Below, one piece after another: positions 42,509-56,823 of a stretch of 64,000 nucleotides of DNA (position 1 is the first letter of the stretch; the number at the start of each line of letters is the position of its first letter). The notes beneath the pieces are model-generated. The model worked only from the letters and a program-made list of their open reading frames with translations. It did no database searches and was not told the origin of the DNA. This DNA is from Patescibacteria group bacterium (lineage in GTDB: Bacteria > Patescibacteriota > Minisyncoccia > Phycocordibacterales > JACZSL01): assembly GCA_022574205.1 (NCBI GenBank), contig JACZSL010000001.1, forward strand, positions 5,447 to 69,446. The letters run 5' to 3'. A program made the translations under genes and the position numbers.

Positions 42509-42556
42509 AATTTCTTTTGATGGCCTGTCTTAGTGTTACAATACTACAATACCATA

Positions 42557-43414
42557 ATGAAAGGCGGCATACGACAACTTAAGGAAAGTGATTTTCCTGA
42601 GCTTTTGAGGCAAATCCCCGACCCACCCGAGAGGCTTTTCATAGAGGGGCCTGTTCCCTCAAGCAAATCGAAGCTTCTTTGTGTAGTCGGGTCGAGGCAC
42701 TATTCCCCATATGGTAAGGATGTGTGTGAGAGATTGATCTCTGGTTTATCTGGTTATAACGTGACGATTGTTTCCGGACTTGCAATCGGTATGGATAGCA
42801 TCGCGCATCGCGCTGCCATTTCGGCGAGGCTAGATACGCTTGCAATACCTGGCTCCGGGCTTGATCCGAGTGTACTCTACCCTGCTTCTCATAGAGCATT
42901 AGCAAGGCAAATTGTTGAAAGAGGCGGAACGCTTCTCTCTGAATTTGAACCAAACACACCGGCCGCGCCATTCACATTTCCACAAAGAAACAGGATAATG
43001 GCAGGGATATCGCACGCAACTCTTGTCATTGAAGCGACTCTAAAGTCAGGGACTCTCATTACGGCAAGGCTTGCTACGGACTATAATAGAGACGTGCTTA
43101 CAGTTCCGCATCCAATTTATTCTAAGACTTCCCGTGGTCCACACATGTTGCTTCGTCTTGGGGCAACATTGATAGAAAAAAGCGAGGATATACTGGAGGC
43201 ACTCCATATTGATCTTAAAAAGAGTAGTAGTTTGAAGCGCTCTCTCCTTTCCGAAGATGAGAGGAAGGTGATAGATGCATTGTATCACCCCTTGGAGAGA
43301 GACGTGCTTGTTAAAATACTCGGCATGCCAGCACGTGAAGTCAATGTCCTCTTAACAGCAATGGAAATTAAAGGTTTAATTGCTGAACGACTTGGAGAAA
43401 TACATATACTTTAA
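42557..43414 (+). CDS. dprA: DNA-processing protein DprA
   Basis: IPDPP, VVGSR, IVSGLAIGMDSIAH, FPQRNRIMAG, KSGTLITA; C-terminal wHTH. Confidence 0.95.
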   Translation: MKGGIRQLKESDFPELLRQIPDPPERLFIEGPVPSSKSKLLCVVGSRHYSPYGKDVCERLISGLSGYNVTIVSGLAIGMDSIAHRAAISARLDTLAIPGSGLDPSVLYPASHRALARQIVERGGTLLSEFEPNTPAAPFTFPQRNRIMAGISHATLVIEATLKSGTLITARLATDYNRDVLTVPHPIYSKTSRGPHMLLRLGATLIEKSEDILEALHIDLKKSSSLKRSLLSEDERKVIDALYHPLERDVLVKILGMPAREVNVLLTAMEIKGLIAERLGEIHIL

Positions 43415-43599
43415 GATTAAAATTTGACAAAATAATGTTTTTGAGTTACTAGTATATATCAATACTTGTCGCGCCTGCCCTGTTGTGAGCTTGCTCTACT
43501 ATGGGGTTAGAAAGTACGGATATATTAATTTGTTATAAATGCAAAAAAACGGGACACACTGTGTTGTGGTATATTTTAAAAGGATAATTTTCTAATTGG

Positions 43600-45825
43600 A
43601 TGAAGTTGTTAATCGTTGAGTCGCCAGCGAAGGCGAAGACAATTGAAAAATATTTGGGTAGCGAATATCGCGTTGAGGCAAGCATTGGCCATATTCGTGA
43701 TCTCCCAAAAAGTAATAAAAAAGCCATCGACATAGATGGTGGTTTTATTCCGCATTATGAAATATCTAAAGGAAAGGAAAAAATAATAAAAACACTAAAA
43801 AGCCTATCGAGGGAGGCCGAGGAAGTTGTGCTTGCTACTGACCATGACCGCGAAGGTGAGGCGATTGCGTGGCACCTTAAAGAGGTACTTGGTTTAAAGA
43901 ATCCAAAACGCATTGTCTTCAACGAAATCACAAAAGATGCAGTAAGAAATGCTATGGAGAATCCTAGAGAAATTGACGACTCCCTACGAGAAGCGCAAGA
44001 AGCAAGACGTGTACTCGATCGAATTGTCGGATATGAGCTGTCAGGATTGATTTGGAAAAAACTTCGATATGGGTTAAGCGCCGGTCGTGTGCAGAGTCCC
44101 GCACTTCGAATCATTATGGAGCGTGAACGTGAAATACGTAAATTTATTCCAGAAGACTTTTGGGTTGTCACAGCGCTTGTAGAAAATAGGAGAGGGGTGT
44201 CGTTTGAACTTGTTTGTAAAGAAGAGCCGCGCGATGAAAAAAGGATGGAATATATTCTTAAAATTGGTAAACAAGCAGATTGGCTAATAAAAAACACGAA
44301 AGAAAGTGAGGTGAAACGTGCACCGAGAGCTCCATTTATTACTTCGACACTTCAGCAGGTCGCAAGTTCCAGACTGGGCTACTCTCCCTCGAACACCATG
44401 CGTATTGCCCAGAGGCTGTATGAGGCTGGGCATATTACATATATGCGTACTGACAGTACTATTTTAAGTGCCACTGCAAAGACTCAAATCTCTGAGGTTA
44501 TTTTAAAAAAGTACGGCAAGGAGTACTTGGAGTCTCGTGTATATTCCGGAAAGAGCAAGTCAGCACAGGAAGCACACGAGGCTATCAGGCCTACAAATGC
44601 CGCTATAGTTTCAGCCGGTACCTCTCCTGATCAGAAAAAATTATACGACTTAATCTGGGCACGAACAACGGCTAGCCAAATGTCTTCTGCAACTATTGTA
44701 AAAACAAAAATTGTTGTGGAGGTGAAGAGTACCGACATTCCTGATTTTTCTATTAGTGGTTCTCGAGTTAAGTTTTCCGGTTGGCTAAAGGCTGATGTGT
44801 TAGCGCGCAGTGAAGATGTTGAACTTCCTAAAGTAAAAGCAGGTGAAATTCTTGAGTTAAAGAACCTCGACTCTCTCGCGAAGCAAACTCAACCGCTTCC
44901 TCGCTATAGCGAGGCCGGACTTGTTAAAGAATTGGAAAAGCGTGGTATAGGACGCCCAAGTACGTACGCTAGCACAATGAAGACACTTGTTGATCGAGGG
45001 TATGTCGAGAAACGTGGAAAGACGCTCTTTCCAACTGACACAGGGGATGCTGTTAGTAGTTTTCTCGAAAAATATTTTGAAAACTATATAAGTGATTCGT
45101 TTACTTCAAAGATGGAAAGTGAGCTGGACGAGATTGCTGCGGGAAAACGAAAGTATGTTGATACACTAGCTGATTTTTATAAGCCATTCCTAGCAGAGGT
45201 GAAGAATAAAGAGAACGTTGAGAAAATCACTAATCTTGGTGATGCGCCAAAAGAATTTGTTTGTCCAACTTGTAAAAGTTCTATGATTTACAAATTGAGT
45301 AGATCCGGGAAGTTTATGAGCTGTTCAAAATTCCCCGACTGTACTGGCGCACGAACGGTTGAGGGTGTTGCGCTCGAGGGCCCCAAAGAGACTGGGGAAA
45401 GTTGCCCTGACTGCACAAAGGGTAAGCTTATGGAACGTGACGGTAGATTTGGACGTTTTGTTGCATGTGATAAGTACCCGAAATGCCGGTACGTAAAACA
45501 AAGCGAGGAGGCAGTCAAACGCGCCTCAACCGGAATTAAGTGTCCAGTGTGTAAAGTCGGCCTGCCTGCGCCAAGTGAAGCGCGGCAGGCAGGTGAGATG
45601 ATTGAGCGACGAGGTCGCTTTGGTGTTTTCTATAGTTGTTCGAGTTATCCTAAATGTAAGTATGCTATAAAAGCAAAGCCAACTGGTGCTGTGTGCGAAT
45701 ATGATCGTGAAGATAAGGGGGTGTGTAATGCTCTCATGATGGAAGGCACAAAAACAATACCGGAGCGCTGTAGCGATAAAACATGCCCTAATCATAATCC
45801 TCATAAACTCACAAAGGTAGAATAA
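43600..45825 (+). CDS. topA: DNA topoisomerase I with zinc-ribbon C-terminus
   Basis: LIVESPAKAKTI, ATDHDREGE, SAGRVQS, ITYMRTDS, GIGRPSTY, C4 repeats. Confidence 0.98.
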   Translation: MKLLIVESPAKAKTIEKYLGSEYRVEASIGHIRDLPKSNKKAIDIDGGFIPHYEISKGKEKIIKTLKSLSREAEEVVLATDHDREGEAIAWHLKEVLGLKNPKRIVFNEITKDAVRNAMENPREIDDSLREAQEARRVLDRIVGYELSGLIWKKLRYGLSAGRVQSPALRIIMEREREIRKFIPEDFWVVTALVENRRGVSFELVCKEEPRDEKRMEYILKIGKQADWLIKNTKESEVKRAPRAPFITSTLQQVASSRLGYSPSNTMRIAQRLYEAGHITYMRTDSTILSATAKTQISEVILKKYGKEYLESRVYSGKSKSAQEAHEAIRPTNAAIVSAGTSPDQKKLYDLIWARTTASQMSSATIVKTKIVVEVKSTDIPDFSISGSRVKFSGWLKADVLARSEDVELPKVKAGEILELKNLDSLAKQTQPLPRYSEAGLVKELEKRGIGRPSTYASTMKTLVDRGYVEKRGKTLFPTDTGDAVSSFLEKYFENYISDSFTSKMESELDEIAAGKRKYVDTLADFYKPFLAEVKNKENVEKITNLGDAPKEFVCPTCKSSMIYKLSRSGKFMSCSKFPDCTGARTVEGVALEGPKETGESCPDCTKGKLMERDGRFGRFVACDKYPKCRYVKQSEEAVKRASTGIKCPVCKVGLPAPSEARQAGEMIERRGRFGVFYSCSSYPKCKYAIKAKPTGAVCEYDREDKGVCNALMMEGTKTIPERCSDKTCPNHNPHKLTKVE
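45561..45593. repeat. 33-bp palindromic element inserted in frame in topA
   Basis: CCTGCCTGC...GCAGGCAGG; adds about 11 aa (LPAPSEARQAG) relative to the preceding zinc ribbon. Confidence 0.8.
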
Positions 45826-45865
45826 ATGCATGCAACCTACGTTGCATGCATTATTGTTTTTGTGG

Positions 45866-45969
45866 GGCGGAGCGATGTTTCGCGACTAGCGAAACCGCGA
45901 GCCGGGGTCGACGAGCACTTAGTAGATTGCGAGCACTTGGAGCAATATACTTGAGTTGCTTGTGACCAA
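45866..45969. repeat. Dispersed structured element related to 53577-53689
   Basis: Shared GGCGGAG, CTTAGTA..TTGCGA, TTGGAGCAA.ATACTT, TTGTGACCAA blocks. Confidence 0.75.
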
Positions 45970-46028
45970 AAACTATTCCTGAACGTTGTAGTGACAAAAC
46001 GTGTCCGAACCATAACCCGCATAAGTTA
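45969..46028 (+). pseudogene. Orphan copy of topA 3' end (KTIPERCSDKTCPNHNPHKL)
   Basis: 20/20 aa identical to 45751-45810 with 15 synonymous codon differences; no start codon. Confidence 0.9.
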
Positions 46029-46221
46029 GATAAAGTAGTAAAGAAAAAAGTGCAAAATAATGTTGTAGTCTTCGTTTGTTATTATCTCTTATAATATTTT
46101 TCTCAAATTCATAAGTTTAGATTATTTTCTAAACTAGATTTTAAGTTCTTTGTAATCATCAGTTGTAAATTCAGGAAAGGTACTTGTGGTAAAAGCATAT
46201 ACATATACAATTAGGCAAATT

Positions 46222-47085
46222 ATGAAAATTGTATACACTATAGCAATTATTGGCAGTGGCGTGATTGGTGGTGCAACAGGAACTGGATTTGCATCACTTG
46301 GAAATATCGTAATATTCATAGATAATAATCCAGACACGCTTGCTAGACTTACCCGCAATGGACACACTACTAGTAGCATTAATGAATTGCCTCAACACAA
46401 TCCAAATATCATATTCATGTGCTTGCCAATACCAACCACCTATAAAGGTGTTGACTTGTCGGCACTCGAGAACACCCTTTGCAGTGTAGCTGAATACCTT
46501 GCGACTACTGAAACTGATTATCCAATAATCGTTTTACGAAGCACTGCTCCAATTGGCACAACACACTCTGCAATAAGATTACTTGAAAAGTACAGTGGTA
46601 AAAAATGTGGACAAAACTTTGGTGTATGTGTAAATCCTGAATACCTACGTGAGCGATATGCGGAGGACGATTTTCTTAATCCACACGTTGTAATTATTGG
46701 CTCAGAAGACACAAAGGCAACTAAGCGCCTCACTGAACTCTATATAACAATTACCGACAACATAGCAGTTATTGGTATTAGAGAAGCCGAACAACATAAG
46801 TACATCCATAATCTTTATAATGCGTGTAAAATTTCATTCTTTAATGAACATAGATATGTGTGTAACGTACTCGGTATTGATGCCGATACCGTATTTCCCC
46901 TAGTCGTAGAAAGCTCCGAGGCGTCATGGAACCCTATATATGGAACTAAAGATATGGGTGCGTTTTGTGGCAGTTGTTTACCAAAAGATACAAAAGGTTT
47001 CTTGAAGTTTGCGAAGCAACATGCATTATCTATGCCTCTGCTTGAAGCAATTATTGTTGTCAATGAACGAACTAAATCTGTTTAA
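46222..47085 (+). CDS. UDP-glucose/GDP-mannose dehydrogenase family protein, short form
   Basis: GSGVIG, LRST.PIGTT, NPEYLRE, KY..N.YNACKISFFNE, GSCLPKD; ends after central domain. Confidence 0.88.
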   Translation: MKIVYTIAIIGSGVIGGATGTGFASLGNIVIFIDNNPDTLARLTRNGHTTSSINELPQHNPNIIFMCLPIPTTYKGVDLSALENTLCSVAEYLATTETDYPIIVLRSTAPIGTTHSAIRLLEKYSGKKCGQNFGVCVNPEYLRERYAEDDFLNPHVVIIGSEDTKATKRLTELYITITDNIAVIGIREAEQHKYIHNLYNACKISFFNEHRYVCNVLGIDADTVFPLVVESSEASWNPIYGTKDMGAFCGSCLPKDTKGFLKFAKQHALSMPLLEAIIVVNERTKSV

Positions 47086-47256
47086 ACCTCTTTCTTCCAT
47101 TATTTTCTCCTAAACGTGCGAATAGTCAAATTTTGTCTACAACTTTTTGAAAATCTAAAAATAACGCGTCAAATCTTATAATTTTAAACAAGGTGAAAAG
47201 TAAATATTTATATCTTTACAATAATTTGAGTAAATAAATTATATGTTTTACATATT

Positions 47257-47817
47257 CTATAAGAAGTCTTTAGTAAAAAGCACATTCTTATATTGTAAAA
47301 CATCAATCCAGTTGTTATGAAAACACAAATGTATGACACCTGTGTTTTGCAGACCATAAATTGTGTTAAAGTGTTTAAATACCTCCTCGTTTGGACTAGT
47401 ACCATGTAGGGCAATCCAAAGCATTTGTTTAATAAATGCGGCATGACTACACACAAGTATGCACTGGGAATTGATCACTGCTATAAAACGAAGTGCGTCG
47501 TGTGCGCGCCGCTTAAATACACTATAGGACTCTAATGGACTAAGTTCACGCTCATTAAACATGGTATTTGGAACATTTTTTACTCCACATATTTCCCCTA
47601 TAATTGTAGCGGTTTCTATTGATCGTACCAGCGCGCTAGACATAATACAATCTATTTTTTCTATACCAACAAAAGCCCGTGCTGCCTGCTGAACCTGCCG
47701 CACACCATTTATACTTAATGATTCACTTGTACTTGGTTCTGCATTACGAATGTTACTGAATGTCTCGCCATGCCTCATAAGATACACGTGTTTATACTTA
47801 TGCTTTGACGTATACAT
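47257..47817 (-). CDS. Histidine phosphatase family protein
   Basis: YLMRHGET, SS.LVRSIETA, LVCSHAA. Confidence 0.88.
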   Translation of the reverse strand: MYTSKHKYKHVYLMRHGETFSNIRNAEPSTSESLSINGVRQVQQAARAFVGIEKIDCIMSSALVRSIETATIIGEICGVKNVPNTMFNERELSPLESYSVFKRRAHDALRFIAVINSQCILVCSHAAFIKQMLWIALHGTSPNEEVFKHFNTIYGLQNTGVIHLCFHNNWIDVLQYKNVLFTKDFL

Positions 47818-47866
47818 ACATGTATATTAACATGCTGATCATCTTATACTCATATGTGATATAAAT

Positions 47867-49111
47867 GTGTCTTGGATACACAGTATGATTTGGGAAAAAC
47901 ATAACATAATTAACGTAATACTCTTTATTGATAACTACCCCATACCTAGTGGTGGTATGGAAATGCACGCACACGCATTTATGCAGCACTTCAAAAACCA
48001 CTCTCGTATTCGTATACAACACGTTATTGCATTCTCCAACAGTCCGCATGATGTACAGAATAATAAGGACGGAATTCTGGTATTACCAAAAAGTATCATA
48101 CACAACCCAAATGGTTTAATAACCGCTCTCAGGAAAGTAGGTATTAGTGATCATGGTGTATTCTTTTTTAATAGTCTCTACTGGATAGAAACACTTGCAG
48201 TACTAAAAAAAACATTTCCTGACACAGTGTACATACAACGATCTGGTGGTAACGATATCATGCAATCGCGTGTTCCCGCAGGCGGAAACACTCTCGCTGA
48301 AAGACAGAAGTTTGTCGTCTCAACACTTAATGCACATTTAGACACACTTATTATTAACAGCGAATATACACGCAGTCGTTTTAAGATACTGGGTATATGC
48401 GACGCATTGATGTATACAATTGTTGGCGGTGTTGATACAAAAATATTTCATCCTATAACAAAAGACCAACAAAGAATATTGCGGTTAAATATGCAATTAC
48501 CACTCGACAAAACGATAATACTAAGTGTGTGCAGAATGGTGTCCTTCAAGGGGTTGCCGTATCTAATATGTGCGATCGCAAAACTTGCCGCACGCAATAT
48601 ACACTATATTATTGTGGGTGATGGGCCAGAAAAACAACGAATACAAACACTAATTGACCAAAATGGGCTACAAGACTCAGTAACACTAGTCGGTGAAATA
48701 CCTATGCAAGACATTCATAAGTATTACAAAGCATCTGATATATATGCCCTAACACCAATCGAAGAATTAGTAATCATTAAAGAGGAATCATATATCCGCA
48801 CTGAGACTATGGGGAGAAGTTTCTGTGAAGCAATTGCCACCAACCTGCCAATAGTGGCGTCATTAGTGGGTGGAATACCCGAAGTTTTAAAAAAATATCC
48901 ACATGCCGTGCTTGTATCACAACAAAACACCGTTGCAACTACACATGCGATTATGACTAAACTTGAGCCGTGTTATCAATATATTAAATCTAATATTACA
49001 TTACCGAACACACACTCTTGGTATGCTATATTTAACACATATGAACAACTATTTACTACAACATCAGCGCATCGCCATACTTGCAGGACGAGACCCAGCA
49101 ATGAAACATGA
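47867..49111 (+). CDS. GT4 glycosyltransferase
   Basis: YP..SGGME.H, GGVDT..F, VCRMVSFKG, IVGDGPE, ETMGRSFCEA, VGGIPE. Confidence 0.9.
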   Translation: MSWIHSMIWEKHNIINVILFIDNYPIPSGGMEMHAHAFMQHFKNHSRIRIQHVIAFSNSPHDVQNNKDGILVLPKSIIHNPNGLITALRKVGISDHGVFFFNSLYWIETLAVLKKTFPDTVYIQRSGGNDIMQSRVPAGGNTLAERQKFVVSTLNAHLDTLIINSEYTRSRFKILGICDALMYTIVGGVDTKIFHPITKDQQRILRLNMQLPLDKTIILSVCRMVSFKGLPYLICAIAKLAARNIHYIIVGDGPEKQRIQTLIDQNGLQDSVTLVGEIPMQDIHKYYKASDIYALTPIEELVIIKEESYIRTETMGRSFCEAIATNLPIVASLVGGIPEVLKKYPHAVLVSQQNTVATTHAIMTKLEPCYQYIKSNITLPNTHSWYAIFNTYEQLFTTTSAHRHTCRTRPSNET

Positions 49112-50303
49112 TACAGACGGCGGATCGGTATATTTAGAGTACCTAGTAGAAACACTCACCAAGTGCGGCGCATATATAGATGTATATATACCGTCTGGTG
49201 TAAAAGGCGCTATTTATAACAAAGAAAGAGATTCTCAGCAAAAAAGTAGTACTGGTAGCAATATATGGGACAATGAAATCGTACGGGTAATCTATTTTCC
49301 AGTGGATCAATGTACGCGCAATGATGTAGATATAACAGAGGACTACTTCTGTGCGCGAATAGAGAAATCGAGTTACATAGCAAAATTTTTTGCAGACAGA
49401 AAACTATATTCGTACAATGCTGTATATATACTGCATATGGCAAATGCATTTGCTGTTATACAAGAACGATTAACTGATGTGGATAATACTGTGGTCTTCC
49501 CTATGATGACCAGTGTTCATTATGAAAAATTTTCGGAAGTACCAAAAGAATACATTGAGGCAGAACAATCTGTATTTGATTGTATTAAACACATATGCAG
49601 CCCTTCAGAAGATGAAATTTGTAACATACAAAAAAGGTTTAGTGTACCTAAGCACAAACTCTTCAAGGTACACAGAGGATTTTCGGACAATGATTTCCCA
49701 CCTCAAAAGCACTGTGTCACAAATACAAACATTATTACACTTTTTTCAGCAAATGGTATCCGCCCACAAAAAGATCATCTTTTCCTCATACCACTCGTTG
49801 TAGAGCTACTACGTCACAACCTACATGTACATGTACACCTAACCGGCAACAACGGACATAGCCACAACCCGGTTTATAATGCATACACAAAAAAGTTTTG
49901 GGGTGCTGTAAAAGATAGTGGTCTTACTAATCACTTTACTGCACATGGTGTTGTTAATCGCACAGAGCTAGTGCGTATCATGTCATCGTGTGACTATGCA
50001 ATCTATCCTTCTATATCAGAAACATTTGGAAAATCAGCGCTAGAAAGTGTAGTAAGTGGATTACCGACAGTTGTATTTGATGACGTACCTGCATTCGGTG
50101 AATTCATCATACATAATGATACTGGTATCATAACCCCTAGAGAACCAATTGCCTGCGTAAAGACAATTTTAGATATTCATAAAAATCCAAACTTGTATAA
50201 AAATATAAGAACACAAGGATTGAAGCTACGAGACACCTTTACATGGAATTCTATAATGCGCGATTTTATACAAAAACAACACTCTCGTTATATTCTTTAC
50301 TAA
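49041..50303 (+). CDS. GT4 glycosyltransferase
   Basis: DGGSVY, IRPQKDH, YPSISETFGKSALES..SGLP. Confidence 0.88.
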   Translation: MNNYLLQHQRIAILAGRDPAMKHDTDGGSVYLEYLVETLTKCGAYIDVYIPSGVKGAIYNKERDSQQKSSTGSNIWDNEIVRVIYFPVDQCTRNDVDITEDYFCARIEKSSYIAKFFADRKLYSYNAVYILHMANAFAVIQERLTDVDNTVVFPMMTSVHYEKFSEVPKEYIEAEQSVFDCIKHICSPSEDEICNIQKRFSVPKHKLFKVHRGFSDNDFPPQKHCVTNTNIITLFSANGIRPQKDHLFLIPLVVELLRHNLHVHVHLTGNNGHSHNPVYNAYTKKFWGAVKDSGLTNHFTAHGVVNRTELVRIMSSCDYAIYPSISETFGKSALESVVSGLPTVVFDDVPAFGEFIIHNDTGIITPREPIACVKTILDIHKNPNLYKNIRTQGLKLRDTFTWNSIMRDFIQKQHSRYILY

Positions 50304-50320
50304 TATAACAGCGATACAAT

Positions 50321-50371
50321 GACAAGATGTGTCCCAACCATAACTCGCATAAATTAAACAAGAACAAATAA
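50321..50371 (+). pseudogene. Third copy of topA 3' end (DKMCPNHNSHKLNKNK*)
   Basis: 10/12 aa match DKTCPNHNPHKL; followed by stop and hairpin GGCGCCACT-A-AGTGGCGTC. Confidence 0.8.
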
Positions 50372-50424
50372 AAAGGCGCCACTAAGTGGCGTCTCTATTG
50401 TGTTGTGCCGTGAAGAGCCGTTGG

Positions 50425-50646
50425 CTATGACCCAAAGCCTACTTCTTTCTGCAGATCATGCGAGCGCTGTCTCATTGCGTCAACTCCACGGCCACCTCCG
50501 TACTTCTGGACATGTCGGACAGCTACATCATACACACATGTGAACATGTTGTGTCCGGGTTCTAACTCTGAAAAACGCTCTGTACATCCAGGACAGCGAT
50601 TGACGTCGCAGTCATCCAAAAAAGCAGGCGTGTGGTCCGTTACCAT
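50425..50646 (-). CDS. Small Cys/His-containing hypothetical protein
   Basis: GAGGTG RBS before ATG 50646; C..CPGC..H..C. Confidence 0.5.
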   Translation of the reverse strand: MVTDHTPAFLDDCDVNRCPGCTERFSELEPGHNMFTCVYDVAVRHVQKYGGGRGVDAMRQRSHDLQKEVGFGS

Positions 50647-50694
50647 AATTAGCACCTCGTTGCATATTTACCAGTGAAAAGTATAATGATCATT

Positions 50695-52233
50695 ATGCTC
50701 AATGTCAAGGACATTATTTCACTTATGCCCAGCGTCCCGTCACAAGAAGGTGTCGAGCTTATTAAAAAGGCATATGCGTTTGCAGAAAATGCTCACCAAG
50801 AAGACGACAGGCTTTCCGGCGAAACTTACATGATACATCTTCAGTCCACAGCCGGAACACTTGCCGAACTTGGTCTCGGCCCGCGAGCTATTTCCGCAGG
50901 GCTCCTTCATGATGTGATTGAGGACGGAAGAGCTGATGAAAATACATTAAAAAAAGAGTTCGGAGAAGAAGTACTTTTTCTTGTTCAAGGTGTCACCAAG
51001 CTTGGTCATTTGAAGTACCGGGGTGTAGAGCGACATGTTGGAAGCCTGCAAAAATTATTTGTTGCGACTTCTCAAGATGTCAGAGTGCTTCTCATAAAAC
51101 TTGCAGATAGACTGCACAACATGAGAACTCTTGATGCGCAGCCAAAAGTAAAGCAGAAACGTATTGCTCTTGAGACACTCGAAATATATGTTCCTCTTGC
51201 CTATCGTCTTGGCGTACGCCGTATTAATCGTGAATTAGAAGATCTTTCTTTTATGTATATTTATCCTAAAGAGTATGCTGAAGTAAAGGAGATTCTCAAG
51301 CAGCGGGCGGCGGAAACAAACAAGCGTCTTGATAAACTTCGCAAATCGATTCGGAAAGCATTTGCAAAGGAAAATCTGGAAATTATTGAAACTTACTGCA
51401 GAATTAAGGGGCTGTTTAGCCTTTACAAAAAATTGCAGCGAAAGGATAAAGACATTGAAAAAGTTTATGACGTTGCTGCGCTTCGCATTATCGTTTCAAC
51501 GGTTAGTGACTGTTATAGTGCGCTCGGTATCATACACGGTATCTACAGGCCACTCACAGGCCGCATAAAAGACTATATTGCACTCCCCAAACCAAACGGT
51601 TACCAAAGTTTACATACAACTGTTTTTGCAGGAGATGGAAGTATTGCTGAAATACAAATCAGAACAGCGGAAATGCATAAACAAGCCGAGTTTGGTATCG
51701 CATCACATTTCACTTATAAACCTGGAGATACGAAAGGAATCTTTAACCAAAATTTTGATTGGCTTCGCCAACTACTCCCAAATGTAATGATGCCGACTAA
51801 TGTAAATGTCGATGGTTTTTTTAAGACAACGCCTAAGCAAGAAGACGTGAAATCCCCACGTTGGATTAAAGAACTTGCTCGTGAACAACAGGGTGCGTCT
51901 TTAGAGCCACAAGAATTTATTAAAATTTTAAAAGCCGATTTTTTCGACTATCGAATATTTGTCTTCACGCCAAAGGGTGACACAGTTGACCTACCCACTG
52001 GTTCGAGCCCTATTGATTTTGCATACGCTATTCACTCTTATATAGGAAATCATATTTCGGGTGCAAAAGTGAATGGTAAGCTTACCGCGCTCGATGCAGA
52101 ATTGGAAAATGGTGACATAGTTGAAATTCTTACAAAGGATAGTAGCCATCCGACTCAAAAGTGGATGGGCTTTGCAAAAACAACGCTTGCACGTCGTCAT
52201 ATTCGTACTGTTTTGCAGAAAAAGAAATCCTAA
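50695..52233 (+). CDS. rel: RelA/SpoT homologue (HD + synthetase + TGS, no ACT)
   Basis: LLHDVIED, IKLADRLHNMRTL, KDYIALPKPNGYQSLHT, EIQIRT, FVFTPKGD, DFAYAIH. Confidence 0.95.
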   Translation: MLNVKDIISLMPSVPSQEGVELIKKAYAFAENAHQEDDRLSGETYMIHLQSTAGTLAELGLGPRAISAGLLHDVIEDGRADENTLKKEFGEEVLFLVQGVTKLGHLKYRGVERHVGSLQKLFVATSQDVRVLLIKLADRLHNMRTLDAQPKVKQKRIALETLEIYVPLAYRLGVRRINRELEDLSFMYIYPKEYAEVKEILKQRAAETNKRLDKLRKSIRKAFAKENLEIIETYCRIKGLFSLYKKLQRKDKDIEKVYDVAALRIIVSTVSDCYSALGIIHGIYRPLTGRIKDYIALPKPNGYQSLHTTVFAGDGSIAEIQIRTAEMHKQAEFGIASHFTYKPGDTKGIFNQNFDWLRQLLPNVMMPTNVNVDGFFKTTPKQEDVKSPRWIKELAREQQGASLEPQEFIKILKADFFDYRIFVFTPKGDTVDLPTGSSPIDFAYAIHSYIGNHISGAKVNGKLTALDAELENGDIVEILTKDSSHPTQKWMGFAKTTLARRHIRTVLQKKKS

Positions 52234-53234
52234 ACGGAGAAGTTGCGTATGGAATACAAATCATCCGGGGTCTCCGTGCTCTTAGTGTCATCTTCTTGTT
52301 TATCTTCTGTGTGGGCATCTCTTTCTTCTGTTGAAGAGCTTTCGTTAAGTGTATCTTCGCCATCATTTATCTTCTCGGGTTCAGGCGCTCTTGATAGAAC
52401 CTGGGTGTCCCCAGAACGCAATATAGTTAACAGGTTTCTCAGATCGTCCTCCGAGAAATAGTCAATAACGATTTTTCCTCCAACTTCCCTGCTCTCTATC
52501 TGTACACGCGTACCAAGACTTTCCGTAAGTTTCTGCTCAAGTTCAATAATTTCTGGAGAGAATAACCGGCTTTTCTTTCGTACACGATCTCTGGCAATTC
52601 GTCTGGCAATAGCTTCAGCTTCGCGTACCGTTAGTTTTTTATACTGAATTTCCTTAAAGAGCGTCTCCTGTTCCTCCGGCCTATCTGAAAGCATCATGAT
52701 TGGACGCGAGTGGCCTTCTGTAATCTCACCGTTTGCAAGCGCTTGTTGCATGTGCTCCGGAAGAGTCAGTAGCCGCAGGCTATTTGTGACATACTCACGA
52801 CTTTTTCCTATTTTCTTTGCAATTTGAGTGTGTTTAAATTTAAATTTTATAACAAGTTGCGCAAACGCGTGTGCGCGATCAATTGGGTTTAAATCCTCAC
52901 GTTGAATGTTCTCGATAATCGCAAGTTCGAGCTTCATCTGATCGCTGTCGTCTCCTGTACGAATAATCAGAGGAACACGCTCGAGTCCGGCTATTTTTGA
53001 CGCTCTAAGACGCCGCTCACCAGCAATAAGTTCGTATTCAACAAACAACCCACCGTCTTCTTTAATAGTCTCTTTGCGAGTGGCAACTAGCGGTTGTAAA
53101 ATACCGTACTCTCGTATAGAATCGGCAAGATCAGCAAGTTTGTGCTCGCTGAACTGACGCCGTGGTTGAAATGGATTGGGTTTGATGCGGTCAACTTCCA
53201 CCCAAAAAACTGAATCTCCTTTTATAGATGACAT
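52230..53234 (-). CDS. parB: ParB/Spo0J partition protein
   Basis: PNPFQPR, GILQPL, LIAGERRLRA, ENIQREDLNPI, KSREYVTNSLRLL. Confidence 0.95.
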   Translation of the reverse strand: MSSIKGDSVFWVEVDRIKPNPFQPRRQFSEHKLADLADSIREYGILQPLVATRKETIKEDGGLFVEYELIAGERRLRASKIAGLERVPLIIRTGDDSDQMKLELAIIENIQREDLNPIDRAHAFAQLVIKFKFKHTQIAKKIGKSREYVTNSLRLLTLPEHMQQALANGEITEGHSRPIMMLSDRPEEQETLFKEIQYKKLTVREAEAIARRIARDRVRKKSRLFSPEIIELEQKLTESLGTRVQIESREVGGKIVIDYFSEDDLRNLLTILRSGDTQVLSRAPEPEKINDGEDTLNESSSTEERDAHTEDKQEDDTKSTETPDDLYSIRNFSV

Positions 53235-53424
53235 TTTTACTTTAATGTAGTAATTATATCACGAAAAAAAGTCGACTCAAATTGAAAAAAGGGTGGCTTT
53301 GTCGTAGAGTTATAGGATCCGGTTCACATATTGGGCGAGTGGCCAGGAGAATCTGATGGTATACGCGCAAAGCGGCATTGCTAAATTAAATACTTAGTTT
53401 AGAGTGGAATAGAATCGAATGTAT

Positions 53425-53506
53425 GCCGCGGTGGCGGAATTGGTATACGCGCACGACTCAAAATCGTGTGGAGCAATCCATGAGGGTTCGACCCCCTCCC
53501 GCGGCA
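53425..53506 (+). tRNA. tRNA-Leu (CAA)
   Basis: Acceptor GCCGCGG/CCGCGGC, anticodon arm CACGA-CTCAAAA-TCGTG, long variable arm, GGTTCGA T-loop; CCA not encoded. Confidence 0.95.
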
Positions 53507-53555
53507 CATAAAACACTAGGCCCTGGTGCAAGAGCACTGGGGTCTTCGTGTTTTA

Positions 53556-53706
53556 CCGTTGGGGATGGAGTTGAAAGGCGGAGACGGTACACAAGACGAG
53601 CGAAGCGAGGACTTGTCGCCGAGTCGTGGTTAAGAACGCTTAGTATTTTGCGAATGTTTGGAGCAAAATACTTAGTGATTTGTGACCAACTCCCTCCTCG
53701 CAAACA
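53556..53706. repeat. tRNA-adjacent structured element bracketed by degenerate tRNA 3'-end copies
   Basis: Starts with inverted T-arm-like GGGGATGGAGTTGAA; ends TGTGACCAACTCCCTCCTCGCA; related to 45866-45969. Confidence 0.6.
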
Positions 53707-53751
53707 AAAATAACAGCTGAGTACAAAATGTACTTGGCTGTGTTTTTTATA

Positions 53752-54294
53752 TTACTTATTTCTTAAGTAATCCAGCATTGTATCAACATCGCTTATCTCA
53801 AACGGATCGGTTGGGCAATCATTTTGGAAACCTGGTTCGATAAATATTTTTTCTATTTTTCCATCGTCTACAAACATGCTGTAACGCCAACTTCTCTCAC
53901 CAAATCCAAGATCATCCTTTTTAACAGCCATGTCCATTGCCCGAGCGAAATTTCCTGAGCCGTCTGGAAGCAACTTAACATTTTTAATGTTCTGGTCTTT
54001 ACCCCACTGGTACATTACAAAAGCATCGTTTACAGAAATACAATATACTTCGTCAACTCCAAGAGCTATTAGCTCATCATATTTTTTTTCATACCCAGGT
54101 AAATGTGTTGAACTACACGTTGGCGTAAACGCACCGGGTAAAGAAAATACAACAATCTTTTTTCCTCTAAATAAATCCTCTGTCATAACATCCTCCCAAC
54201 GAAATGGGTTATCGCCTGGCACCGATTCGTCGCGGACACGAGTTTTCAATGTTACATTAGGTACTCGGGTGGGGGTTTTTGGTTCTTGTGTCAT
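53752..54294 (-). CDS. Peroxiredoxin (Prx5/type II)
   Basis: FSLPGAFTPTCSSTHLPGY, CISVNDAFVM, FGERSWRYSM. Confidence 0.95.
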   Translation of the reverse strand: MTQEPKTPTRVPNVTLKTRVRDESVPGDNPFRWEDVMTEDLFRGKKIVVFSLPGAFTPTCSSTHLPGYEKKYDELIALGVDEVYCISVNDAFVMYQWGKDQNIKNVKLLPDGSGNFARAMDMAVKKDDLGFGERSWRYSMFVDDGKIEKIFIEPGFQNDCPTDPFEISDVDTMLDYLRNK

Positions 54295-54344
54295 ATTTAC
54301 TTTTGAGTTTATAGTTATATGGTGGCATTGTATCACATATTATT

Positions 54345-55244
54345 ATGAGTAATAAAAAACAAAAGATTTTGGTAGTCGTAGGTCCAACAGCTTCTGGAAA
54401 AACAAGACTTTCTATAAGTTTGGCGAAAAAATTTAATGGGGAGATCATTTCCGCTGATTCAAGGCAGGTGTATAAAGGTCTCAACATTGGAACAGAAAAA
54501 GCATCAAATAAAGAAATGCAGGGTATCCCCCATCACTTAATAGATGTGTGTGATCCATCTGATACTTTTACGGTTCGTGATTTTAAGAAACATGCTAAAG
54601 ATGCTATTCGTGAAATTGCTTCGCACAGCAAACTTCCAATAGTGACCGGTGGCTCAGGATTTTATATAGATGCTCTTTTGTACAAAATAGATTTTCCGGA
54701 AGTGCTACCAAACAAGAGTTTGCGTAAAGAGCTAGAACATAAGTCAAAGGATGAGCTGTTCACCGTATTAGAGGAAAAGGATCCAGAGAGGGCGAAGACT
54801 ATAGATCCACACAATAAAAGACGTCTTATTCGTGCGCTTGAAATAATAGAAAAGCTAGGGAGCGTCCCGGAGATTGGTGTAAGAGAGGGTGTATACGACA
54901 CGCTTATAATAGGCATCAAAACCAGTGATCATAAACTAAAAGAAAAAATTGAGGAGAGGTTTGGAGAAACTATGGAAAAAGGTCTGATAAATGAAATAAT
55001 GTTACTACGAAACAACGGAATTTCAGATGAGCGGATCAATGAATTTGGACTTGAGTATAGAGTTGGTTTGGAGTTTTTAAATGATGATATATCTGAAGTT
55101 GATATGAGAGAGAGGATTATTGGCGAGTTGTGGAAGTACGTGAAGCGACAAAAAACGTGGTTTAAGAGAAACAAAGATATACTGTGGTTTGAGATTGATA
55201 ATATCGAGGAAATTGAAAAAGAAATCAACAATTTTTTAAACTAA
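54345..55244 (+). CDS. miaA: tRNA dimethylallyltransferase
   Basis: GPTASGKT, IISADSRQVYKGLNIGT.K, PHHLID, GGSGFY, KRQKTWF. Confidence 0.97.
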   Translation: MSNKKQKILVVVGPTASGKTRLSISLAKKFNGEIISADSRQVYKGLNIGTEKASNKEMQGIPHHLIDVCDPSDTFTVRDFKKHAKDAIREIASHSKLPIVTGGSGFYIDALLYKIDFPEVLPNKSLRKELEHKSKDELFTVLEEKDPERAKTIDPHNKRRLIRALEIIEKLGSVPEIGVREGVYDTLIIGIKTSDHKLKEKIEERFGETMEKGLINEIMLLRNNGISDERINEFGLEYRVGLEFLNDDISEVDMRERIIGELWKYVKRQKTWFKRNKDILWFEIDNIEEIEKEINNFLN

Positions 55245-55353
55245 ACTCAACACGCCAGCTGCGATCGAGCGTAGTGGGTACTTCTTTCGAACCCTCGTGG
55301 GCTAACGCGTGGTTACAAAAAAGGCCATGAAAAACATGGCTTTTTTGTTACTG

Positions 55354-55425
55354 CGGGTCCACCAGGACTTGAACCTGGGACGGTGGTTTTGGAGACCACT
55401 GTTTTACCAACTAAACTATGGACCC
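55354..55425 (-). tRNA. tRNA-Trp (CCA)
   Basis: Acceptor GGGTCCA/TGGACCC, anticodon arm GTGGT-CTCCAAA-ACCAC, GGTTCAA T-loop; downstream of rpmG. Confidence 0.95.
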
Positions 55426-55497
55426 AAAAATCTCTGAGAGAGATTTTTTGACCATTGTGGGAGACTTTTACAAATCATACCACAAACTCTAAGTGGC

Positions 55498-55656
55498 TTA
55501 TTTTTTGACTTCCGTATGAAGTAAGTGCTTTCTGTCCCACTTACAATACTTCTTGAGCTCGATTTTACGCGTAACCTGTTTACGATTTTTTCTGGTCCAG
55601 TAGTTAATCCGATTACATTTACTACAAGCTAGTTTTATTAATTTATCTTGTGACAT
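55498..55656 (-). CDS. rpmG: 50S ribosomal protein L33
   Basis: Manually translated MSQDKLIKLACSKCNRINYWTRKNRKQVTRKIELKKYCKWDRKHLLHTEVKK. Confidence 0.95.
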   Translation of the reverse strand: MSQDKLIKLACSKCNRINYWTRKNRKQVTRKIELKKYCKWDRKHLLHTEVKK

Positions 55657-55719
55657 AATTTCCGTGTCTATGTTTAGTAGACGCCATTATAGAGTATGTT
55701 TGGAGAGTAGTCAAATTAT

Positions 55720-56823
55720 CTACCCTCCAATAATTCTTAAAATATCGTTGTAGGAAATGAGTAAAATGAGAAGTATTAAGAGTATGAAAAAGATGTTGTG
55801 AAGTGAATTTATTACATTTGGTTGAAGTGGTGAACCTTTTACAACTTCTATAAGTAGAAACAATAAACGTCCCCCATCAAGTGCTGGAATTGGAAGAATA
55901 TTTATAACTGCTAGATTTATTGAAATGATTGCTGTAAAGAATAGGAGGGAGACTATACCAAGTTCTGCTGCATCCCCCACGACGCTTACAATGCCAATTG
56001 GCCCAGCAATATCCGAAAGATCTGCAGACAATGTAAATGCGCCTACTATGAGAGCACCGATGGCTACAGCTACGGTTTTAGTAATTTGATACGTTATTTT
56101 TCCTCCTTCCCACAGTGCAATGTGTACAGGGTATTTAAGATCTCCAATGAGGGCCATTGATATGCCAATGGCTCTACGATCCGGGTCACCGCTAATCAGG
56201 CCTAATTCAGGCATAATTCGCAAGGTTACCTCCTCGTCTGCGCGCATAAGAACAAGCTCTATGTCACCGCTACCCCCTACAATGTACGTAACAATTTTAT
56301 CTATGCCATTCAGAGGATCGATTTTATTTCCATCAAGTGAAATTATGCGGTCGTCCGATAAAATTCCTGCTATAGCTCCCGGAGAGCCTTCTAATGTCTC
56401 CATAATTACTACCTCAACGTTTTTGCTGTACTTGAGATCAGTATCGGAAACTACGGTTGTTACTCCAATCAAAAATATAACGGCAAATATAAACCAAGCA
56501 AAAATCAGATTAAAGACTACACCAGCAACCAACACTAAGGCCTGAATAATCTTTGGTTTGTTTACAAAACTCCTCTCGCTATCAGGTCCCGATATTGATT
56601 CTTCATTTGGATTCTCACCAAAAATTTTTACAAATCCACCGAGCGGAATCCAGTTTAGCGTATATTCTGTCCCATTTTTCCTTCCTAACGTTAAAATTTT
56701 TGGTGGAAAACCAATGCCAAACTCATCTACCCGAATACCGTTTTTTTTGGCAACAATAAAATGCCCAAATTCATGAACAAGTATTAAAATCACGAGTATG
56801 ACAAGGAAAATAATGACTGACAT
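55720..56823 (-). CDS. rseP: RIP metalloprotease RseP
   Basis: HEFGH, FGIGFPP, IPLGGFVK, PDZ, NILPIPALDGG. Confidence 0.95.
   Translation of the reverse strand: MSVIIFLVILVILILVHEFGHFIVAKKNGIRVDEFGIGFPPKILTLGRKNGTEYTLNWIPLGGFVKIFGENPNEESISGPDSERSFVNKPKIIQALVLVAGVVFNLIFAWFIFAVIFLIGVTTVVSDTDLKYSKNVEVVIMETLEGSPGAIAGILSDDRIISLDGNKIDPLNGIDKIVTYIVGGSGDIELVLMRADEEVTLRIMPELGLISGDPDRRAIGISMALIGDLKYPVHIALWEGGKITYQITKTVAVAIGALIVGAFTLSADLSDIAGPIGIVSVVGDAAELGIVSLLFFTAIISINLAVINILPIPALDGGRLLFLLIEVVKGSPLQPNVINSLHNIFFILLILLILLISYNDILRIIGG

Follow-up and report, generated by a model that had tools for sequence, protein, structure and literature searches.

A candidate guide-bearing mini-element at the ends of topA and tRNA genes in Patescibacteria

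Introduction

Why should a bacterial genome of 650 kb keep three copies of the same gene end? The window considered here, a stretch of 64,000 nucleotides from a Patescibacteria group bacterium (GenBank assembly GCA_022574205.1, contig JACZSL010000001.1, positions 5,447 to 69,446), contains topA, the gene for DNA topoisomerase I, followed by two further copies of its 3' end, the last of them beyond a block of sugar genes. A preliminary description of this locus took the copies to bracket a glycosylation island and to record repeated replacement of the gene end by incoming DNA. Part of this stands: replacement with displacement of the old end is supported, and copy 3 does lie beyond the island. 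Copies 1 and 2, however, frame a separate element of 218 bp, and the step that produced them involves a site-specific mini-element that had been missed and that targets tRNA genes as well. The reading put forward here, to which we give somewhat better than even credence, is that this unit was inserted site-specifically as a folded single strand, and that copy 3 is an older resident end, displaced by a donor end together with the sugar genes.

Three copies of the topA 3' end

The gene and its repeated ends are arranged as follows.

43600..45825, + strand: topA, DNA topoisomerase I, 741 amino acids (PF01131, PF01751, PF01396), the target gene
45750..45825, + strand: copy 1, the working topA 3' end, read from its presumed polarity as the mini-element's spare end
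45968..46046, + strand: copy 2, a displaced topA 3' end that abuts the core exactly
50303..50371, + strand: copy 3, a decayed topA 3' end with no core in front
50374..50394, + strand: terminator-like hairpin 3' of copy 3

Over 20 codons, copy 2 (45969-46028) differs from topA (45751-45810) by 15 synonymous and no non-synonymous changes, with 5 codons identical, and this recount agrees with the earlier one. There are 16 nucleotide differences between the two ends, and the probability that 16 of 16 neutral changes would be silent is about 4e-12. The fraction of same-residue codons that differ is 0.75 between copies 1 and 2; between genomes the mean is 0.59 (standard deviation 0.12). Since all 16 changes are silent and the divergence is of the between-genome level, both copies are, judged by their sequence, functional-type alleles and not a gene with its decaying local duplicate, as had been argued. 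Codon and GC statistics over the 20 codons assign neither copy to host or donor.

Copy 3 is more decayed than copy 2. The stop and the terminator ascribed to it were both found, the latter as a terminator-like hairpin, and the copy probably starts further to the left, near 50303; read from there, it contains an in-frame stop as well as a number of non-synonymous changes. It is the sole further match in the genome (tblastn E 3e-6; nhmmer E 7e-5, with the runner-up at 0.61). Among titled records, the nearest to the window's topA are mostly metagenome-assembled genomes of the Patescibacteria group. (The zinc-ribbon region of the gene, at 45557-45594, carries an in-frame palindromic insertion, and 34 bases are absent there in a relative from run X5.)

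Anatomy of the 218-bp unit

The unit occupies 45750-45967, is non-coding and contains no open reading frame (ORF). It consists of a spare topA end, a hairpin, an antisense arm and a folded core ending in GTGACC, after which copy 2 begins.

45747..45758, + strand: insertion site, paired by the arm, with the junction in the Thr716 codon between 45749 and 45750
45825..45852, + strand: 12-bp hairpin of the unit, terminator-like, in which strain differences are compensated
45853..45864, + strand: antisense arm ("guide") of 12 nt, the exact reverse complement of 45747-45758
45865..45967, + strand: conserved folded core, a stem with a GGA/GA internal loop and then a long hairpin

At the base of the long hairpin, GGTC (45906-45909) pairs with the terminal GACC (45964-45967). 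Compared with shuffled sequences, the stretch folds with z = -5.5 as DNA and z = -4.6 as RNA. A search of 43000-56000 against Rfam at E up to 1 gave no match to the unit, and tRNAs alone scored above the cut-off. A candidate remnant arm 3' of copy 2 (about 46063-46073) is mismatched to the copy 2 wobbles at 2 of 3 sites and was not used.

Distribution at topA and tRNA genes

How widespread is this arrangement? Of 60 topA relatives searched, the best 40 were taken, and tblastn found a second topA end in 9 of them. Read by eye, the same 40 include 9 with the core and one (L009) with a different, fold-back insert at the same codon; 3 loci end before this could be judged. Across the order, 25 of 301 genomes, the window's own among them, have the exact junction pattern, and all 25 matches lie behind topA, as do 4 of 23 fetched sites with one mismatch, which are topA units too. 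In at least 29 other topA loci, a copy 2-type end begins at one fixed nucleotide after the conserved core, and 29 topA loci of about 190-340 bp have the fold and the arm, intact and covarying.

The element is not confined to topA. The core pattern is present in 95 of 151 genomes and its reversed control in none, and within genera the presence of the element is patchy. In the window's genome, 11 of 38 tRNA calls are followed by a core, and every one of these cores has its own arm (a twelfth match belongs to a neighbouring tRNA). The arms of tRNA units are antisense to the T loop of the tRNA concerned, and a displaced tRNA end is often present. Spare end, antisense arm, conserved core and displaced end, the parts of the layout, were all found. 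The window itself holds a second family member, found by eye and additional to the 11.

53425..53706, + strand: tRNA-Leu(CAA) unit (tRNA 53425-53507, arm 53561-53575, core ending at 53687, displaced tRNA 3' end from 53688)

In this unit, the rule found at topA (see below) is turned round: of the current gene and the fragment downstream, it is the fragment that the arm fits better.

There are also variants. A second, longer core type stands alone at tRNA-Asp (G000:C22), with tRNA-Gln (G000:C15) listed alongside, and is nested in some topA units (L035, L016, L088). A third core ending is found at tRNA-Met/Thr and, in L152, at topA. Besides the fold-back of L009, a short insert in L042, at a later codon, duplicates the topA end. 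(L042, L043 and L044 are titled Bdellovibrionales; their topA resembles that of the candidate phyla radiation, with 60-66% identity in the C-terminal part, and the labels may be wrong.) An apparent intron-style insertion in L047 turned out to be a run of N.

Three further observations concern tRNA loci. In L067 (G000:C1:1-1800), a tRNA-Asn unit is followed by about 1.4 kb of small genes and by a second, identical unit at the contig end, which could be cargo between stacked units or an assembly repeat. In L075 (G000:C7:3715-3958), tRNA-Thr(TGT) is followed by two 84-base tandem repeats with its 3' half, called tRNA-Pro by ARAGORN, and then by an eroded unit. The tRNA calls of G000, a genome of 650 kb, include two each of tRNA-Trp(CCA), tRNA-Tyr(GTA) and tRNA-Thr(GGT).

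Pairing of the arm and the core

With what do the arm and the core pair? Wobble bases vary freely, and topA is therefore testable where tRNA sites are not: its wobbles reveal which copy the arm matches, the position of the junction and the most recent of the units. The arm was located by best match in 29 topA loci (30 less L085, in which it is eroded), and the conserved core starts directly 3' of it in 29 of 29. These loci span many genera but include kin that are not fully independent. At the wobbles of Gly715, Thr716, Lys717 and Thr718, the arm matches the upstream copy in 28, 27, 28 and 21 of them. The corresponding means over 20,000 permutations were 13.0, 9.8, 18.9 and 6.6, and the maxima were 23, 19, 26 and 15, all below the observed values. 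Over 30 loci (L085 included), the copies differ from each other at 42 sites; the arm agrees with copy 1 at 36 of these, with copy 2 at 3 and with neither at 3. Since the arm tracks the upstream copy and not the downstream one, the long pairing would be made in cis, with the end that the unit carries. On the 5' side of the junction just 3 arm bases pair, the Gly715 wobble among them, and tRNA units have the same geometry, with 3 paired bases and then the junction after C.

The core was aligned in 22 of the 29 loci, the longer ones being omitted. In this alignment, from which the structure itself was derived, 93.6% of cells are paired and 21 of 29 pairs show two-sided changes; none of 500 shuffles reached as high, and slid controls gave 33-50%. 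The GGTC-GACC pairing at the end of the core is present in 21 of the 22 loci, with a compensating change in the remaining one. The pairings at both junctions are accordingly conserved and covarying.

Stacks and strain variation

Stacks are also found in other genomes, as the preliminary description had suggested they might be. In G097 there are two different stacked units, each with an arm that matches the end it carries, which argues that the downstream end was once functional and was then displaced. In G141, two near-identical units precede a different last end. The downstream copy in L042 (whose insert is different and eroded) is identical to the intact end of its relative L043. A comparable trace is seen in contigs. 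Contig X4-13, from an element-free relative, has 8 differences from the window in the 27 bases that follow the junction, as against 11-16 in the 156 before it (p 0.0004-0.005), and 6 of the 8 post-junction differences are copy 2's letter; among the matches listed, contig X6-16 has the same pattern at 5-6 sites.

In run X1, one topA contig (depth 10.3) leads either into a variant element (4.6) or into an element-free end (2.8), a split in depth that makes the insertion site polymorphic within the population. Contigs of runs X1, X2 and X3 are identical to the window over 45867-45996, 45967-46093, 46006-46395, 46139-50800, 50041-50393 and 50371-50672, and exact contigs from two studies tile the path from copy 2 through the island to copy 3. 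Of these runs, X1 or X2 may be the sample from which the window was assembled, and X3 belongs to a different study. The window's exact letters at 45789-45866 are in no contig among the matches listed, and variant strains span that stretch. As far as can be tested, the locus is not the chimera of strains that would have undone the preliminary description.

A proposed mechanism

Direct observation of the anatomy, the fixed junction, the covariation of the arm with the upstream copy and of the core stems, the cores at tRNA genes, the stacking and the strain polymorphism suggests how such a unit might move. The mechanism that we propose, with moderate confidence, is single-strand, guide-assisted insertion by a trans-acting enzyme. 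In the mobile single strand, the arm would already be paired with the first 9-10 bases of the unit itself, which would leave 3 arm bases free for the target, immediately 5' of the cut; GGTC would meanwhile hold the unit's own GACC end. Both sites end in C, and an enzyme that is host-encoded or otherwise acts in trans would exchange the strands. The rest of the specificity would come from the likeness between the carried end and the gene. On insertion into the Thr716 codon, the resident end would be pushed aside, and later homologous recombination between strains or copies would blur or remove units.

A wider claim is tentative, and we think it somewhat doubtful as a whole. It would make the unit a natural, programmable insertion system of Patescibacteria with a guide of its own. 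An antisense arm made in cis would direct a folded scaffold of about 100 nt to the end of any essential gene, and a core enzyme of the host would move it; divergent alleles of essential genes would be exchanged in this way, and hot spots would arise that capture blocks such as the glycosylation cassette. Were the mechanism true, the smallest bacterial genomes would hold an abundant mobile unit that has no protein of its own and whose target is written in a 12-base arm. This would amount to a compact, programmable insertion chemistry, as well as a route for allele exchange in essential genes.

The sugar block and copy 3

How, then, did the sugar genes come to lie between copies 2 and 3? The block and the genes around it are as follows.

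42533..43414, + strand: dprA, a conserved neighbour
46225..47085, + strand: nucleotide-sugar dehydrogenase-like gene, N-terminal and central domains only
47257..47817, - strand: histidine phosphatase superfamily gene
47867..49111, + strand: GT4-type glycosyltransferase 1
49062..50303, + strand: GT4-type glycosyltransferase 2 (gt2), from a narrow family of 27 proteins
50698..52233, + strand: relA/spoT, in the order the gene usually found downstream of topA

The four-gene block has a GC content of 37-39%, as against 41-46% in its neighbours, and none of its genes is an integrase, as the preliminary description had said. No gt2 was found in 400 other genomes of the order, nor did a search of 400 genomes of the phylum find another. 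A scan of metagenomes by alignment gave 11 loci, 7 of which were examined; a single-protein scan gave none. In two metagenome loci, L121 and L122, whose topA is 62-63% identical, the same four genes lie between topA and relA, with neither copies nor core. This points to a block that was likely captured with a topA end. (The sugar dehydrogenase lacks its C-terminal domain and is similarly short in L121, L122 and L124, such that the short form appears to be conserved.) In the run X5 relative, the topA end is separated from relA by 308 bases; the stop of copy 3 is 310 bases from the same point, and the matching spacing places copy 3 where the resident end stood. It is thus likely that the block arrived attached to a donor topA end.

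The order of events would then begin with copy 3 as the resident end. A donor topA end with the sugar block would have replaced it, at a junction that left no core, and the mini-element would later have displaced copy 2. The absence of a core speaks against a part of this account: copy 3 starts no more than about 6 bases from the junction of the element, and with no core before it the element alone cannot explain the cargo step. An earlier unit may have been lost when the pieces were joined, or else the joining was illegitimate. It also tells against the account that the block may have been inherited vertically with wide loss, although gt2 was not found in the 400 genomes of the order. Stacks with variable cargo, which the preliminary description proposed to look for, are not supported as a rule. 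Among 65 topA loci examined, no other has a distant copy bracketing cargo, and cargo of more than 2 kb is not enriched at loci with the element (3 of 28, versus 4 of 29 without). For the cargo step alone, transformation-linked capture is plausible; the presence of dprA next door, offered in its favour, is no evidence for it, since the dprA-topA neighbourhood is the same in L121 and L122, which have no copies. The cargo step is a single case and of moderate interest.

Alternative explanations

A number of findings weigh against insertion of a mobile single strand, and several of them concern the enzyme. In the window's genome, which is 94% complete, there is no match to the IS110 families PF02371 and PF01548, nor to a serine recombinase, a resolvase or a reverse transcriptase, and the genome's single Y1 gene has its own, different palindromes. 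The contigs of runs X1-X6 contain no circular form and no precise empty-site joint (contigs drop rare forms). The arm agrees with the downstream copy in just 16, 17 and 10 of 29 loci, little above chance, and a long pairing with the target in trans is therefore unsupported. As far as the stop codon, contig X4-13 remains close to copy 1, and in run X1 there is a contig that reads as copy 1 does and then goes on to a plain terminator, with no element. Same-genus pairs, among the matches listed, have saturated wobbles and are too diverged to polarise. Lastly, in 6 of 30 loci the copies are nearly identical (at least 18 of 20 codons), a result to be expected of gene conversion or local duplication. 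Both the homogenised copies and the element-free strains that resemble copy 1 would be accounted for by recombination after insertion.

Candidate enzymes were looked for in the window's genome and beyond. The genome has one tyrosine recombinase, inside the window and 8.5 kb away, which scores best as XerC/D-like, and the integron integrase model TIGR02249 gave 104 bits for a cut-off of 265. Y1/RAYT was rejected as the mobiliser: in 151 genomes it showed no association with the core (56/39/35/21, Fisher p 0.73), and 11 core-rich genomes have no Y1 match. (In L079, at G000:C18:230-995, a REP-associated-type Y1 gene, below the family cut-off, lies between two identical perfect palindromes, the right one overlapping the last codons of the gene.)

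Could the fold simply be useful where it is? The chief competitor holds that the fold is static and of use to the host: each target gene would have received a single insertion long ago, since spread and refreshed by homologous recombination alone and kept for a role in the host RNA, such as termination, stability or antisense control. The homogenised copies would follow from this, as would element variants and an element-free strain on one topA backbone in run X1; in 28 of 29 loci the arm matches the wobble of Gly715, which lies 5' of the junction, as would be expected of selection in place, G-T pairs are conserved on the sense strand, and no mobile enzyme was found. A static fold is nevertheless hard to reconcile with the stacked units of G097, which differ in arm and core, with the second core subtype of L152 and the unrelated insert of L009 at the same topA codon, or with the patchy presence within genera. 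Moreover, the more than 10 tRNA targets would require repeated new junctions, always 3 bases inside the arm pairing. We consider this explanation unlikely, if the strongest of the alternatives.

Movement through RNA is improbable. Here the unit would reverse-splice like an intron or ribozyme, with the arm as an internal guide sequence, and would then be reverse-transcribed. The unit does always lie on the sense strand of a transcribed gene, it folds as RNA (z -4.6), and its arm pairs across the 5' junction, as the guides of group I introns do. A core of just about 100 nt, the absence of any Rfam match and the lack of a reverse transcriptase in the window's genome all point the other way.

Slightly less probable again is that transforming DNA, anchored by topA homology and joined illegitimately at its far end, produced all of the copies with no dedicated element. 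Loci like the required donors exist, in which the block follows directly on topA; no core accompanies copy 3, and dprA is present. Illegitimate joints would be expected to scatter, however, and the start of copy 2 is fixed to the nucleotide, after a conserved core, in at least 29 further topA loci, with the same core found at tRNAs. This explanation is contradicted for copy 2 and may hold for the cargo step only.

It is very improbable that the units are shrunken attL-attR scars of ordinary integrase-bearing islands. The geometry of gene and displaced fragment and the T-loop class of crossover are those of tRNA islands (PMC4383910), and the window has one tyrosine recombinase; that enzyme is best matched to XerC/D, a single core serves many unrelated targets, and scars would hardly keep fold and arm intact and covarying in 29 topA loci. 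Chimeric assembly of strains, for which the polymorphic population and the breaking of contigs at the site might be cited, is scarcely credible given the exact tiling by contigs of two studies and the same architecture in 29 other genomes.

Relation to known systems

Insertion of a single strand with a guide, as proposed here, would have several relatives. Protein genes are known as targets: phage 21 and e14 integrate into icd. Islands that integrate at tRNA and tmRNA 3' ends restore their target and leave a displaced fragment (PMC4383910). The unit resembles such integrase-borne islands in that it carries a replacement for the gene end and has the displaced fragment at its far side, and also in the T-loop crossover at tRNAs and the tandem stacking. 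The topA locus has the restored gene and the displaced 3' fragment of a gene-end island; there is no integrase gene on the unit, and the island genes are sugar enzymes. The unit differs further in its size of about 200 bp, in having no ORF, and in combining one folded core for many unrelated targets with an antisense arm that covaries with the target.

IS608 finds its cut sites through base pairing with guide sequences located at hairpin feet; it inserts 3' of a tetranucleotide, where extended pairing has been engineered (PMC5934647). The unit would be like IS200/IS605 and REP/TnpA-REP systems in that its cut sites would be recognised by pairing at hairpin feet and its target would be programmable by DNA sequence. 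It differs in carrying no TnpA, in showing no co-occurrence with Y1, in its plain Watson-Crick arm of 12 nt and in carrying a gene end. It cannot be placed in the IS608-type or the island family, because the enzyme is lacking on the unit.

Two other systems invite comparison. Integron attC cassettes also have a folded single-strand site whose end is the crossover, and also stack at one platform. The attC crossover core is GTTRRRY; the junction of the unit reads GTGACC then N on the sense strand, with no GTT on either strand by eye, the unit has no cargo gene, and the genome has no integron integrase. In the IS110 bridge RNA, separate segments pair with the target and with the element's own end. 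The unit likewise has separate pairing segments for target and own end; unlike IS110, it has its arm in cis beside the carried gene end, and no IS110 recombinase was found in the window's genome.

No published description of the element was found in Rfam or in a literature search that covered few subscription papers and no supplements. Replacement of a gene end is a known principle. If movement directed by the guide is demonstrated, the combination of an antisense arm with a reusable scaffold may prove to be a new category.

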